Shown: piece after piece, positions 3,009-11,962 of the stretch
Layout of the letters: each line of letters starts with the position of its first letter
How positions within the stretch are numbered: position 1 is the first letter of the stretch
NCBI RefSeq assembly: GCF_046105845.1
Contig: NZ_CP151004.1
Reading direction: 5' to 3' (one strand)
DNA: 64,000 bases
Source of the DNA: Escherichia coli
GTDB lineage: Bacteria > Pseudomonadota > Gammaproteobacteria > Enterobacterales > Enterobacteriaceae
Notes under the pieces: generated by a model
Database searches by the model: none
Told to the model about the DNA's origin: nothing
Seen by the model: the letters and a program-made list of their open reading frames with translations, nothing else
Translations under genes and position numbers: made by a program

Positions 3009-3779
3009 TTAATGATCGAGGACGATCAGTGGTGAATGGTTGGCAGGATCTTTAAGTACGGTAATATCCGCGCCGTAGAGCATTGTCAGCGCCTGCTGTG
3101 TCAATACATCCTGCGGTTTACCATTTGCGATAACCTTTCCTTTTTGCATTAATACAATACGGTCTGCATAACGTGCGGCAAGATTTAGATCGTGCAATAC
3201 GCAGCAAACATTGAATTGCCGTTCGTGAACTAACTGGCGTAATAAACGGAACAAGTGCTGCTGATGGTGAATATCCAGCGCCGAAGTTGGTTCATCAAGA
3301 AATAACCATTTCGGTGAGGGAGTAGGTTCCCAGAGTTGCACCAGCAGGCGCGCTAATTGCACGCGCTGTTGTTCACCACCGGATAATTGCCGATAGTCGC
3401 GGTTTGCTAACGCCTGACAGTCACATAACGCCATTATTTGTGCTGTTTCATTATCCTGATTACCAGTACGATGCGGATGCCGACCCATCTGGATAACTTC
3501 TTGTACGCTGAATGGAAACGCCATGTGGCTATTTTGACGCATCACGGCCCGGTGTTTCGCCAGTTCAGTAATCGACCATTCATTTAATGGCTTATTAAAC
3601 AACCGACATTCGCCGCTATCAGGTTGAAGATAGCCGGTTAACTGGCGAAGCAGCGTAGATTTTCCCGCACCATTAGGGCCGAGAATGGCAACAATTTCCC
3701 CACCGGGAAAAGTCAGCGAGACATTATCAGTCAGACGCCGCCCCTGAAGGCTATAAACCAGATTCTGGGCGCTGATCAT
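3009..3779 (-). CDS. chuV: Hemin ABC transporter ATP-binding protein ChuV/HmuV
   Basis: ABC ATPase with Walker [10 protein letters not shown], signature LSGGEQQR, Walker [12 protein letters not shown]; trimmed to [10 protein letters not shown] start, which gives a 4-bp ATGA overlap with chuU. Confidence 0.85.
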
Positions 3780-4768
3780 GTGATCCTCCGGTTGCGCAGA
3801 ATCAACCACATAAAATAAGGACCACCAAGCAGGCTGGTTAATAATCCCACGGGCATTTCTGCTGGCTGTACCAGCGTGCGGGCAAGCGTGTCTGCCATCA
3901 GCAATAAACAGGCTCCGGCGAGGGCGGAACAAGGGATTAGCCAGCGGTGATTTGCTCCGGTAGTCATGCGAATCAGATGCGGGATTACCAGGCCAATAAA
4001 GCCGATAATGCCGCTTACCGATACGGCAGCACCAACGAGCAGTGAGCTCACTAACAGTAATTGCTGGCGTTTACGCTTAACGTTCACGCCGAGGTAATGG
4101 GCTTCTTCATCACCGAGCTGCAGTAAATTCAGCGTTCCGGCGAGATAAGTTGTTGCGATAATGGCCGGTAGGATGAATGAACTGGCAACCAATAACGTCG
4201 GCCATTGCGCCTGTCCAAGATTGCCCATCATCCACAATGTGAGTTGTCGTAGCTGCTGCTCATCGCCGATATAGCTCAGGATGCCGATCGCTGCGCCGCA
4301 CAGGGCATTGATGGCGATACCGGCGAGTAATAATTGCATCATGCTGCCATCGCGATGGCGCTGCGTGATGAGAAAAATGATGGTGCAGACCACTAAACTT
4401 CCGGCAATGGCAAACACCATTTGCTCATAGAGCACCAGCACCACTGGGAAGGAGAAGGGCAGCACAATAGCAACGCCAACCATTAATGCAGAACCGCTAC
4501 TGACGCCGAGTAATCCAGGGTCAGCCATTGGGTTGCGAAAAAGCCCCTGCATAATTACCCCGGCGGTTGCCAACGCTGCACCTACCAGCACCGCCAGCAA
4601 AACCCGTGGTAGACGAATATTGAGCCAGATATCGCGGTATTCCTCATCAAAAAGGGCATCAAAACTGATCTTTAACGCTCCCTGACTGGCACCGAACAGC
4701 ACTAGGGCAAGCAATAATAGTGATAGCCCCATAAAGACCCTGGCGGATGAAAATGAATCCTTGAGCAC
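3776..4768 (-). CDS. chuU: Hemin ABC transporter permease ChuU/HmuU (FecCD family)
   Basis: 330 aa polytopic membrane protein; FecCD-type permease directly upstream of the ATPase. Confidence 0.85.
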
Positions 4769-4818
4769 GCAAAACTCCGTTATGACGTTGCGGCGCGGAG
4801 AGTCTGCGCCGCATGGGA

Positions 4819-8902: not shown

Positions 8903-10885
8903 ATGTCACGTCCGCAATTTACCTCGTTGCGTTTGAGTTTGTTGGCTTTGGCTGTTTCTGCCACCTTGCCAACGTTTGCTTTTGCTACTGAAACCATGAC
9001 CGTTACGGCAACGGGGAATGCCCGTAGTTCCTTCGAAGCGCCTATGATGGTCAGCGTCATCGACACTTCCGCTCCTGAAAATCAAACGGCTACTTCAGCC
9101 ACCGATCTGCTGCGTCATGTTCCTGGAATTACTCTTGATGGTACCGGACGAACCAACGGTCAGGATGTAAATATGCGTGGCTATGATCATCGCGGCGTGC
9201 TGGTTCTTGTCGATGGTGTTCGCCAGGGAACGGATACCGGACACCTGAATGGTACTTTTCTTGATCCGGCGCTGATCAAGCGTGTTGAGATTGTTCGCGG
9301 ACCTTCAGCATTACTGTATGGCAGTGGCGCGCTGGGTGGGGTGATCTCCTACGATACGGTCGATGCAAAAGATTTATTGCAGGAAGGACAAAGTAGTGGT
9401 TTTCGTGTCTTTGGTACTGGCGGCACGGGGGACCATAGCCTGGGATTAGGCGCGAGCGCGTTTGGACGAACTGAAAATCTGGATGGTATTGTGGCCTGGT
9501 CCAGTCGCGATCGGGGTGATTTACGCCAGAGCAATGATGAAACCGCGCCGAATGACGAGTCCATTAATAACATGCTGGCGAAAGGGACCTGGCAAATTGA
9601 TTCAGCCCAGTCTCTGAGCGGTTTAGTGCGTTACTACAACAACGACGCGCGTGAACCAAAAAATCCGCAGACCGTTGAAGCTTCTGATAGCAGCAACCCG
9701 ATGGTTGATCGTTCAACAATTCAACGCGATGTGCAGCTTTCTTATAAACTCGCCCCGCAGGGCAACGACTGGTTAAATGCAGATGCAAAAATTTACTGGT
9801 CGGAAGTCCGTATTAATGCGCAAAACACGGGGAGTTCCGGCGAGTATCGTGAACAGATAACAAAAGGAGCCAGGCTGGAGAACCGTTCCACTCTATTTGC
9901 CGACAGTTTCGCTTCTCACTTACTGACATATGGCGGTGAGTATTATCGTCAGGAACAACATCCGGGCGGCGCGACGACGGGCTTCCCGCAAGCAAAAATC
10001 GATTTTAGCTCTGGCTGGCTACAGGATGAGATCACCTTACGCGATCTGCCGATTACCCTGCTTGGCGGAACCCGCTATGACAGTTATCGCGGTAGCAGCG
10101 ACGGCTACAAAGATGTTGATGCTGACAAATGGTCATCTCGTGCGGGGATGACTATCAACCCGACCAACTGGCTGATGTTATTTGGCTCATATGCCCAGGC
10201 ATTCCGCGCCCCGACGATGGGCGAAATGTATAACGATTCTAAGCACTTCTCGATTGGTCGCTTCTATACCAACTATTGGGTGCCAAACCCGAACTTACGT
10301 CCGGAAACTAACGAAACTCAGGAGTACGGTTTTGGGCTGCGTTTTGATGACCTGATGTTGTCCAATGATGCCCTGGAATTTAAAGCCAGCTACTTTGATA
10401 CCAAAGCGAAGGATTACATCTCCACGACCGTCGATTTCGCGGCGGCGACAACTATGTCGTATAACGTCCCGAACGCCAAAATCTGGGGTTGGGATGTGAT
10501 GACGAAATATACCACTGATCTGTTTAGCCTTGATGTGGCCTATAACCGTACCCGCGGCAAAGACACCGATACCGGCGAATATATCTCCAGTATTAACCCG
10601 GATACCGTTACCAGCACCCTGAATATTCCGATCGCTCACAGTGGCTTCTCTGTTGGGTGGGTTGGTACGTTTGCCGATCGCTCAACACATATCAGCAGCA
10701 GTTACAGCAAACAACCAGGCTATGGCGTGAATGATTTCTACGTCAGTTATCAAGGACAACAGGCGCTCAAAGGTATGACCACTACTTTGGTGTTGGGTAA
10801 CGCTTTCGACAAAGAGTACTGGTCGCCACAAGGCATCCCACAGGATGGTCGTAATGGAAAAATTTTCGTGAGTTATCAATGGTAA
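8903..10885 (+). CDS. chuA: TonB-dependent outer membrane hemin receptor ChuA
   Basis: 660 aa; signal peptide, TonB-box-like ETMTVTA, C-terminal ...FVSYQW with terminal aromatic residue typical of TonB-dependent receptors. Confidence 0.9.
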   Translation: MSRPQFTSLRLSLLALAVSATLPTFAFATETMTVTATGNARSSFEAPMMVSVIDTSAPENQTATSATDLLRHVPGITLDGTGRTNGQDVNMRGYDHRGVLVLVDGVRQGTDTGHLNGTFLDPALIKRVEIVRGPSALLYGSGALGGVISYDTVDAKDLLQEGQSSGFRVFGTGGTGDHSLGLGASAFGRTENLDGIVAWSSRDRGDLRQSNDETAPNDESINNMLAKGTWQIDSAQSLSGLVRYYNNDAREPKNPQTVEASDSSNPMVDRSTIQRDVQLSYKLAPQGNDWLNADAKIYWSEVRINAQNTGSSGEYREQITKGARLENRSTLFADSFASHLLTYGGEYYRQEQHPGGATTGFPQAKIDFSSGWLQDEITLRDLPITLLGGTRYDSYRGSSDGYKDVDADKWSSRAGMTINPTNWLMLFGSYAQAFRAPTMGEMYNDSKHFSIGRFYTNYWVPNPNLRPETNETQEYGFGLRFDDLMLSNDALEFKASYFDTKAKDYISTTVDFAAATTMSYNVPNAKIWGWDVMTKYTTDLFSLDVAYNRTRGKDTDTGEYISSINPDTVTSTLNIPIAHSGFSVGWVGTFADRSTHISSSYSKQPGYGVNDFYVSYQGQQALKGMTTTLVLGNAFDKEYWSPQGIPQDGRNGKIFVSYQW

Positions 10886-10933
10886 TCATCTGCCCCGATA
10901 TTTCGGGGCATTTATCTGGAAGGAAGAGAGACA

Positions 10934-11962
10934 ATGAACCACTACACACGCTGGCTTGAGTTAAAAGAACAAAATCCCGGAAAGTACGCGCGTGACATCG
11001 CAGGTTTAATGAATATTAGCGAAGCAGAACTGGCATTTGCACGCGTCACGCACGATGCGTGGCGGATGCGCGGCGATATCCGTGAAATTCTGGCGGCGCT
11101 CGAAAGTGTTGGCGAGACCAAATGTATTTGTCGTAATGAATATGCAGTCCATGAGCAAGTTGGTGCGTTCACAAACCAGCATTTGAACGGACATGCCGGA
11201 TTGATCCTCAATCCACGCGCGCTGGATTTGCGTCTGTTTCTCAATCAATGGGCCAGTGTTTTCCACATCAAAGAAAATACGACTCGTGGCGAACGCCAGA
11301 GTATTCAGTTCTTTGATCATCAGGGCGATGCATTACTAAAAGTTTATGCCACCGACAATACCGATATGGCGGCATGGAGTGAGCTTCTGGCACGGTTTAT
11401 CGCCGATGAGAATACGCCGCTTGAGTTAAAAGCCGTTGATGCGCCAGTCGTTCAAATGCGAGCCGATGCCAGTGTGGTCGAGCAAGAGTGGCGGGCGATG
11501 ACCGACGTTCATCAGTTTTTTACGTTGCTCAAGCGCCACAACCTGACGCGCCAACAGGCGTTCAATCTGGTGGCAGACGATTTGGCCTGCAAAGTATCCA
11601 ACAGTGCGTTGGCGCAAATTCTTGAATCTGCACAGCAGGATGGCAATGAAATCATGGTGTTTGTTGGCAACCGTGGCTGCGTACAGATTTTCACTGGCGT
11701 GGTAGAAAAAGTGGTGCCAATGAAAGGTTGGCTGAATATTTTTAACCCGACGTTTACTCTTCATCTATTAGAAGAGAGCATTGCTGAAACCTGGGTAACC
11801 CGTAAACCTGCTAGTGACGGTTATGTGACCAGTCTGGAATTGTTTGCCCATGATGGTACGCAGATAGCGCAACTTTATGGTCAACGTACAGAAGGCGAAC
11901 AGGAGCAAGCGCAATGGCGTAAGCAAATTGCTTCGCTGATACCGGAAGGCGTTACTGTATAA
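10934..11962 (+). CDS. chuS: Heme oxygenase / hemin-degrading protein ChuS
   Basis: 342 aa, immediately downstream of chuA as in chu/shu loci. Confidence 0.9.
   Translation: MNHYTRWLELKEQNPGKYARDIAGLMNISEAELAFARVTHDAWRMRGDIREILAALESVGETKCICRNEYAVHEQVGAFTNQHLNGHAGLILNPRALDLRLFLNQWASVFHIKENTTRGERQSIQFFDHQGDALLKVYATDNTDMAAWSELLARFIADENTPLELKAVDAPVVQMRADASVVEQEWRAMTDVHQFFTLLKRHNLTRQQAFNLVADDLACKVSNSALAQILESAQQDGNEIMVFVGNRGCVQIFTGVVEKVVPMKGWLNIFNPTFTLHLLEESIAETWVTRKPASDGYVTSLELFAHDGTQIAQLYGQRTEGEQEQAQWRKQIASLIPEGVTV

Follow-up and report, generated by a model that had tools for sequence, protein, structure and literature searches.

An intact chu heme-utilization locus between yhiD and dctR in Escherichia coli, with a probable composite origin

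A stretch of 64,000 nucleotides (nt) of Escherichia coli DNA (RefSeq assembly GCF_046105845.1, contig NZ_CP151004.1), referred to here as the window, was examined for the chu heme-utilization genes. The open reading frame (ORF) list and its translations revealed eight uninterrupted ORFs at 3009-11962, in the canonical order, all of full length and with no internal stop codons. A first-pass annotation of the window had proposed a complete eight-gene chu locus between yhiD and dctR here; the gene order is as it claimed, and the outer stop codons, those of chuV and chuS, lie at exactly these positions. The genes, with the evidence for each, are as follows.

3009-3779, minus strand: chuV, 256 amino acids (aa), ATPase of an ATP-binding cassette (ABC) heme importer (NF010068, 395 bits against a cutoff of 261; Walker A, signature and Walker B motifs found).
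3776-4768, minus strand: chuU, 330 aa, FecCD-family permease (Pfam FecCD, 320 bits; ShuU/ChuU in the best RefSeq match).
4819-5442, minus strand: chuY, 207 aa, anaerobilin reductase (PDB 5GUY (ChuY) and 5FFQ, E ~1e-132, full length; Pfam NAD_binding_10).
5442-5936, minus strand: chuX, 164 aa, cytoplasmic heme carrier (TIGR04108 HutX, 210 bits against a cutoff of 110; PDB 2OVI ChuX, E 3e-107).
5949-7286, minus strand: chuW, 445 aa, radical SAM methyltransferase of anaerobic heme degradation (TIGR04107 rSAM_HutW, 567 bits against a cutoff of 400; CxxxCxxC at residue 67).
7306-8220, minus strand: chuT, 304 aa, periplasmic heme-binding protein (residues 49-304 differ from PDB 2R7A ShuT at 4 of 256 positions).
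8903-10885, plus strand: chuA, 660 aa, TonB-dependent outer-membrane heme/hemoglobin receptor (TIGR01785, 587 bits against a cutoff of 317).
10934-11962, plus strand: chuS, 342 aa, cytoplasmic heme-degrading protein (PDB 4CDP and 1U9T, E ~1e-226; two HemS/ChuX domains).

The end of chuU and the start of chuV share 4 nt. The gene names given by RefSeq annotation, NCBIfam, Pfam and the solved Chu/Shu structures agree, and the Pfam domains are consistent with the assigned names for all eight proteins. Curated equivalog or subfamily models of NCBIfam scored above cutoff for ChuV, ChuX, ChuW and ChuA. The identification of the products as Chu/Shu proteins, for which alignment had been proposed as the check, was upheld by near-identity to the solved structures of ChuS, ChuA and ShuA, ChuY, ChuX and ShuT, with ChuA scoring 1442 bits against 9DHE (ChuA) and 1425 bits against 3FHH (ShuA). 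The alignment with ShuT (2R7A) places the mature N-terminus of ChuT at codon 49, preceded by a 48-residue leader. ChuA carries His86, His420, FRAP and NPNL, ChuS His193 and Arg100, ChuT Tyr94, and ChuX His65 and His98; these, like the motifs noted for ChuW and ChuV, are functionally important positions.

The genes on either side of the locus are part of the acid fitness island; how far the block extends was set by comparison with E. coli K-12.

2310-2957, plus strand: yhiD, MgtC/SapB family, left flank, acid fitness island (NF007431, 400 bits; RefSeq annotation of the best match).
12023-12553, minus strand: dctR (yhiF), LuxR-family regulator, right flank, acid fitness island (Pfam GerE; RefSeq annotation).
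2963-12022, no strand: block differing from K-12, 9,060 bp against a 36-bp K-12 spacer (junction alignment with MG1655).

As the first-pass annotation had stated, yhiD and dctR are adjacent in K-12: in MG1655 they are convergent neighbours with stop codons 41 bp apart. Identity with K-12 is lost 5 bp beyond the stop codon of yhiD and restarts exactly at that of dctR. When the K-12 site serves as query, alignments with chu-positive genomes are interrupted at query positions 500 and 537, the two ends of the 36 bp. Gaps of 51 bp (2958-3008) and 60 bp (11963-12022) separate the outermost chu genes from yhiD and dctR, respectively. The flanks are 98.7% identical to K-12, and hdeD, hdeA, hdeB, yhiD, dctR and slp stand in the order of the K-12 acid fitness island (slp to gadA) at 98.6-98.7% identity; the island differs in carrying 9,060 bp here where K-12 has 36 bp, and its gadE-to-gadA part lies beyond position 1, the left end of the window. 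A position of chu inside the acid fitness island has been reported for O157:H7 and E. albertii (PMC5799925) and for EDL933 and O145:H28 (PMC9144400).

Within the entire 64 kb, the 19-bp Fur consensus is matched best at 8595-8613 (2 mismatches), 8244-8262 (3 mismatches) and 8250-8268 (4 mismatches), three sites that all fall in the interval between the divergent chuT and chuA genes, where the following elements were predicted.

8575-8613, plus strand: chuA promoter, TTGATC, 17-nt spacer and AATAAT (8575-8603), with the -10 element overlapped by the Fur box at 8595-8613 (promoter scan).
8612-8902, plus strand: chuA leader RNA, 291 nt, the length given in PMC9002310; conserved across Escherichia species.
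8874-8905, plus strand: shuA/chuA FourU RNA thermometer over the ribosome-binding site (Rfam RF02597, 60.1 bits against a gathering score of 58).
8221-8262, minus strand: chuT leader, 42 nt, with the Fur box at 8244-8262 and a weak hairpin over the ribosome-binding site (Fur scan; fold of U15/U16 with AAGAG).

In O157:H7 Sakai, the chuA transcription start has been mapped and the leader is 291 nt long (PMC9002310); the Sakai site corresponds to window position 8612. In the fold of the thermometer, UUUUCCUC is paired with GGAGAA. For shuT, a 42-nt leader determined by 5' rapid amplification of cDNA ends (5'-RACE), a Fur site with 3 mismatches right after the transcription start and a thermometer destabilised by changes to U15/U16 have been described (PMC5458455), and 8221-8262 carries all of these published features, with the transcription start at 8262. 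The elements predicted for Fur-regulated divergent promoters and for thermometers in both leaders are thus at the published positions. No significant Pfam match was obtained for the small ORFs tested in this 680-bp interval (8221-8902), namely four among the largest, searched at E 0.01, and one in the chuA leader, searched at E 10. A later start for chuT was suspected from the 48-aa leader and from a promoter-like match overlapping the ATG, and was abandoned in view of the 5'-RACE result (PMC5458455) and of the lack of a downstream in-frame ATG in E. coli.

Divergent chuAS and chuTWXYUV units, orthologous proteins, key residues, the yhiD-dctR site and the regulatory elements, all features of Chu/Shu loci, were found together, and nothing in the sequence contradicts this assignment. 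The block is therefore read as an intact chromosomal chu (= shu) heme-utilization locus of E. coli sensu stricto at its standard yhiD/dctR site in the acid fitness island, with a probability of about 0.96. Two caveats attach to this reading. For ChuU, ChuT, ChuY and ChuS no NCBIfam model scored above cutoff, and their identity comes from Pfam, solved structures and RefSeq annotation. The second concerns the source: as identity to the closest among 5,426 complete genomes is only 98.0-99.3% and the flanks are 98.7% identical to K-12, the window comes from a poorly sampled lineage of E. coli sensu stricto. A locus that is present but decayed, leaving the source strain without working heme uptake, would be conceivable given that partial loci do occur (Escherichia sp. 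MOD1-EC7003 has chuAS only, and 19 of 5,420 genomes show neither the full nor the empty state). Against this stand eight ORFs of full length, intact residues for catalysis and ligand binding, and conserved promoters, Fur boxes and thermometer, and decay is left with only a very slight chance of being correct. The chu locus is thus presumed from its sequence to be active in the source strain.

The distribution of the locus was assessed with a megablast search of 2500-12500 against the 5,426 complete RefSeq E. coli genomes, in which a genome covering at least 80% of the 10-kb query was counted as a carrier. By this measure 2,234 genomes (~41%) carry chu, with the same junctions; in a search with the K-12 site as query, 3,167 (58%) were found to have the 'empty' site. 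The best RefSeq match is 99.3% identical over the 10 kb and has the same eight genes annotated in the same order. The best of the 5,426 genomes are 98.0-98.5% identical to the window over 12.5-62 kb and 99.3% identical over chu, and the exact ChuA protein of the window is rare, being found in only 2 contigs of a public collection. Assignment to a chu-positive lineage, also made by the first-pass annotation, was supported by exact matches, at 9138-9157 and 9406-9425, to the Clermont chuA primer sequences; the predicted products of 288 bp and 279 bp are of the expected sizes.

The chu locus of O157:H7 (Sakai ECs_4379-4387, EDL933) and of uropathogenic E. coli consists of the same eight genes in the same order and on the same strands, with the slp-dctR flank on one side. 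The Sakai locus is 97.6% identical over 9,051 bp, has a chuA leader of 291 nt like that in the window, and shows allelic differences only. The description of the window locus as the arrangement known from O157:H7 was therefore correct; the placement is published (PMC5799925, PMC9144400) and the locus was first found in Shigella dysenteriae, its original description there being credited to Wyckoff et al. 1998 in a passage of PMC5799925. The S. dysenteriae shu locus (shuA, shuS, shuTWXYUV) is orthologous: the ShuT (2R7A) and ShuA (3FHH) structures are near-identical to the window proteins, and both published leader thermometers and the shuT Fur site are found here. However, the window ChuA scores slightly higher against the structures of E. 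coli ChuA than against that of ShuA, and the window is not from S. dysenteriae type 1.

Other Escherichia were surveyed by scanning one genome per species for ChuA, followed by tblastn searches with all window proteins and by a search for further states of the site via relatives of DctR. Loci at the same site were found in E. albertii and in strains E69 and SCPM-O-B-8794, two divergent lineages that bear the label E. coli. States without chu were found in an Escherichia lineage with yhiD beside dctR and in E. fergusonii. Escherichia sp. MOD1-EC7003 has a reduced form at the same site (5882-6531 of its locus): chuAS has been retained, whereas chuTWXYUV has been replaced by an ERIC element, and a second such element interrupts the leader of chuA. 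Two Logan assemblies (SRR26188688 and SRR26188687) represent an Escherichia-like lineage with a DctR 74% identical to that in the window, in which dctR is directly beside hdeB and neither yhiD nor chu is present.

The absence of the block from K-12 and from 58% of complete genomes, its difference in guanine-plus-cytosine (G+C) content from the immediate flanks and the frequent listing of chu among virulence-associated islands would fit a mobile pathogenicity islet that the source lineage acquired recently by insertion at the yhiD-dctR site. However, the hallmarks of such an island were missing. No mobility genes, such as those for an integrase or transposase, were found in the block, the domains of the eight genes being those of heme transport and degradation only and the small ORFs tested having no Pfam match, and no transfer RNA (tRNA) gene or other Rfam family was found at the junctions. 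The ends of the 9,060-bp block do not resemble those of attachment (att) sites or insertion sequences; direct repeats do not exceed 8 bp (TATTTATT) and inverted repeats 7 bp, which is the chance level, as direct repeats of at least 8 bp arose in ~18% and inverted repeats of at least 7 bp in ~46% of trials with shuffled sequence. Nor is the composition of the block atypical, since its G+C content (50.2%) is like that of the rest of the window (51.3%), and the AT-rich parts are instead its flanks in the acid fitness island (41.1% and 38.1% G+C).

Comparison across Escherichia argues further against a recent insertion. The position of the right junction does not vary among the chu-carrying Escherichia lineages compared, E. 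albertii among them, and the left junction is the same wherever yhiD exists, E. albertii being without yhiD. Identity of chu and of its flanks is 89-90% and 87%, respectively, in E. albertii, and 96.1% and 96.5% in Escherichia sp. MOD1-EC7003. As the divergence of chu keeps step with that of the flanks, chu is an old resident and not a recent arrival, and the islet explanation is largely refuted and considered highly improbable. The first-pass description of the locus as embedded in the acid fitness island accordingly stands as a statement of position, but not as one of recent insertion.

The age of the locus raises the converse explanation, in which the chu-positive state is ancestral and K-12 has lost chu by a deletion that left the 36 bp as a scar. 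This would be in line with the presence of chu at the yhiD/dctR site in E. albertii and several divergent Escherichia lineages, which indicates that chu is old, and 'a clean deletion' is among the possibilities raised for the absence of chu in PMC5799925. However, the K-12 spacer matches the two ends of the block at only 12 and 9 of 36 positions, which is chance level, and local alignment with either end was no better than that of shuffled sequence. Moreover, in an ungapped comparison anchored on the flanks, the spacer was found to be identical at 21 of 33 positions to that of a chu-negative Escherichia lineage, a value reached in 0 of 20,000 shuffles, and the flanks of that lineage are only 88% identical to those of E. 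coli. A deletion cannot recreate a spacer that is absent from the chu-positive allele, so the chu-present and chu-absent alleles would both be old, or would have been exchanged by homologous recombination through the flanks. A deletion scar is thus regarded as unlikely. The evidence that the K-12 spacer is instead homologous to the spacer of this distant chu-negative lineage is suggestive, graded so because gapped global and local tests of the same pair were not significant and only the flank-anchored ungapped test was. The similarity of the K-12 spacer to that of E. fergusonii was also not significant. A 9-mer, GTCTGGCTA, shared by the K-12 spacer and the block is in opposite orientation in the two and was set aside as not significant.

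The two halves of the Escherichia chu locus were found to have different closest relatives. The nearest relatives of ChuA and ChuS outside Escherichia (at most 88% and 85% aa identity, respectively) are encoded in colinear hemP-R-S-T-U-V operons. These hemPRSTUV/hmuRSTUV-type operons, of the Yersinia type, were identified in Citrobacter, Kluyvera, Enterobacter, Buttiauxella and other genera, and contain homologous counterparts of the chuA promoter, of its Fur box and of the final ~80 nt of its leader. However, their own T, U and V proteins are only ~33%, 61% and 51% identical to ChuT, ChuU and ChuV, W, X and Y are missing, and hemP is intact, whereas in the window chuT, chuU and chuV are divergent from chuAS and there is no intact hemP. 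The window locus is thus not an operon of this type.

Relatives of ChuW with 81-87% identity are found in some of the same genera in a different operon, consisting of a receptor gene followed by T-W-X-Y-U-V, for which we know of no established name. This seven-gene operon was found in Citrobacter portucalensis, C. amalonaticus, Yokenella regensburgei and Klebsiella huaxiensis, although no Y gene is called in C. amalonaticus. In order, size and overlap, T, W, X, Y, U and V correspond to their window counterparts, and the products share 80, 86, 87, 78, 88 and 79% aa identity, respectively, with those encoded there. The operon occupies a different genomic site (in Citrobacter, between cueR and copA) with no adjoining chuAS, and its first gene encodes a TonB-dependent receptor of 710-716 aa, here called R2, that is only ~30% identical to ChuA. 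In Escherichia, only a 5' remnant of the R2 gene appears to have been kept, and the interval around the start of chuT can be divided as follows.

8137-8220, minus strand: chuT codons 1-28, read as a remnant of the R2 signal peptide (tblastn of residues 1-30 of Citrobacter R2 matches 8223-8134 with 53% identity, E 3e-6).
8131-8341, minus strand: stretch with homology to Citrobacter R2, in its promoter, Fur box, leader and 5' end (blastn, 68% identity over 198-213 nt, E 3e-21 to 5e-19).
8342-8566, no strand: presumed seam between the two modules (no blastn match in the non-Escherichia loci compared; no Pfam match, small ORFs tested).
8567-8931: part homologous to the chuA-type promoter and leader (intergenic comparison by blastn).

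The likeness of chuT codons 1-28 to R2 is also seen in the DNA alignment, the codon view and the protein alignment. In E. albertii and the two divergent lineages, the relic is followed in frame by the original ATG of ChuT (...MKKLF...). A 9-nt deletion in E. coli sensu stricto, at about 8127-8136 (minus strand), removes this native ATG, turning ...SSMKKLF into ...KKLF, and the relic ATG at 8220 is consequently the only in-frame ATG upstream of mature ChuT. The unusual 48-residue leader of ChuT is thus accounted for by fusion of the receptor relic and loss of the native start, in agreement with the mapped 42-nt leader.

Taken together, these comparisons make it probable that the chu locus of Escherichia is a chimera, in which chuAS and its promoter come from an operon of the hemP-R-S-T-U-V type and chuTWXYUV from a receptor-TWXYUV operon, about 2 kb of the receptor gene having been deleted in frame. 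As parts of the same account, held jointly with the same confidence, chuT would owe its promoter, its Fur box, the leader with the thermometer and the first ~28 codons to the lost receptor gene, of which they would be a relic, and ChuT would carry two tandem signal-peptide-like segments with translation having to begin at the relic start. Separately, and at the same confidence, both alleles of the yhiD/dctR site would predate E. coli. No mention of such a chimera or relic was found in the literature, of which coverage was incomplete with most subscription papers falling outside it, and priority is not claimed.

A possible trace of hemP in the chuA leader was also considered. In 74 loci from outside Escherichia, hemP lies upstream of the receptor gene. 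Window positions 8642-8692 translate to MDNKTIAFARDNAQRSS, which resembles the N-terminus of HemP (47% identity over 17 aa, with E 0.001 obtained in a tiny database), and the stretch is 261 nt from the chuA start codon, compared with 263 nt for hemP and the receptor start codon in Citrobacter. However, a HemP profile did not score above shuffles against the translated chuA leader, in which Pfam hemP was not found, and the middle 130 nt did not align (z at most 1.7). The 291-nt leader as a decayed hemP was therefore kept only as a weak lead, and 8642-8692 is possibly, on slender grounds, what is left of that gene.

From the published biochemistry of these protein families, the locus would be expected to work as follows. 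Iron limitation would lead Fur to free the two divergent promoters, and the weak hairpins over the ribosome-binding sites in both leaders, corresponding to the published RNA thermometers, would favour translation at 37 °C. ChuA would take heme from host hemoproteins across the outer membrane with energy supplied by TonB, ChuT would carry it through the periplasm, and ChuUV would import it across the inner membrane. In the cytoplasm, heme may be held by ChuX and degraded by ChuS under aerobic conditions; in anaerobiosis, ChuW would open the ring, yielding anaerobilin and iron, and ChuY would then reduce the anaerobilin.

The eight-gene chu/shu locus, its control by Fur and temperature, the use of chuA as a phylogroup marker and the position in the acid fitness island are already known. 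The composite origin, the receptor relic in chuT and a K-12 spacer that is not a scar may be new, as evolutionary detail and not as a new kind of system. In practical terms, the locus marks the window as belonging to a chuA-positive E. coli lineage with seemingly working heme uptake. The receptor relic would account for chuT having a Fur-controlled, temperature-sensing leader of its own, inherited from the lost receptor gene, and a composite origin would mean that a virulence-associated locus with two promoters was assembled from parts that are still separate in Citrobacter. An ancient 'empty' allele would bear on the published puzzle (PMC5799925) of the patchy distribution of chu in Escherichia.

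Hairpins were found at both junctions and in the gap between chuA and chuS.

2977-3003, plus strand: left-junction hairpin, 11-bp stem and U-rich tail (terminator scan; -19.4 kcal/mol, 0 of 200 shuffles as good).
11975-12006, plus strand: right-junction hairpin, U-rich tail (-15.9 kcal/mol, 0 of 200 shuffles as good).
10891-10910, plus strand: G+C-rich hairpin in the chuA-chuS gap (terminator scan; -16.1 kcal/mol, 0 of 200 shuffles as good).

The first-pass annotation had described short junctions with no mobility genes and a single hairpin, on the left at 2978-3002. The shortness of the junctions and the lack of mobility genes were confirmed, the coordinates of the left hairpin were adjusted to 2977-3003, and the restriction to the left side did not hold, a second hairpin being present at 11975-12006. 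The left hairpin is likely the terminator of yhiD and lies within the block that is absent from K-12. The right hairpin, which is likely the chuS terminator, is kept in other Escherichia lineages, where the loop is tighter. The left hairpin resembles that of the hdeB terminator (window 2263-2300), a likeness that 0.4% of random hairpins with equal composition attained, and in E. albertii, which has no yhiD, the hdeB hairpin directly adjoins chuV (about 4040-4103 of its locus). By these two observations, yhiD behaves as a separate present-or-absent cassette between similar hairpins.

Several further features were noted in the window. A 407-aa ORF beside slp (13519-14742, minus strand; 32-37% G+C, no Pfam family) is intact here and annotated as frameshifted in the closest RefSeq genomes; on the same side of slp, K-12 has the IS5-disrupted pseudogene yhiS. 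Two copies of the AgrB antisense RNA (Rfam RF02891, 108 and 100 bits) were found at 19147-19230 and 19381-19464 (minus strand) in the interval between arsR and gor, where the closest genome has a dinQ toxin gene annotated. A variable block between yhhJ and nikR (~41750-48044) contains a hicA/hicB toxin-antitoxin pair and genes for a class II aldolase, HPr, an FGGY-family kinase, the IIC, IIB and IIA components of a galactitol-type phosphotransferase system and a GntR regulator. The region 37.0-61.9 kb is covered to at least 80% in one place by only 1,123 of the 5,426 genomes.

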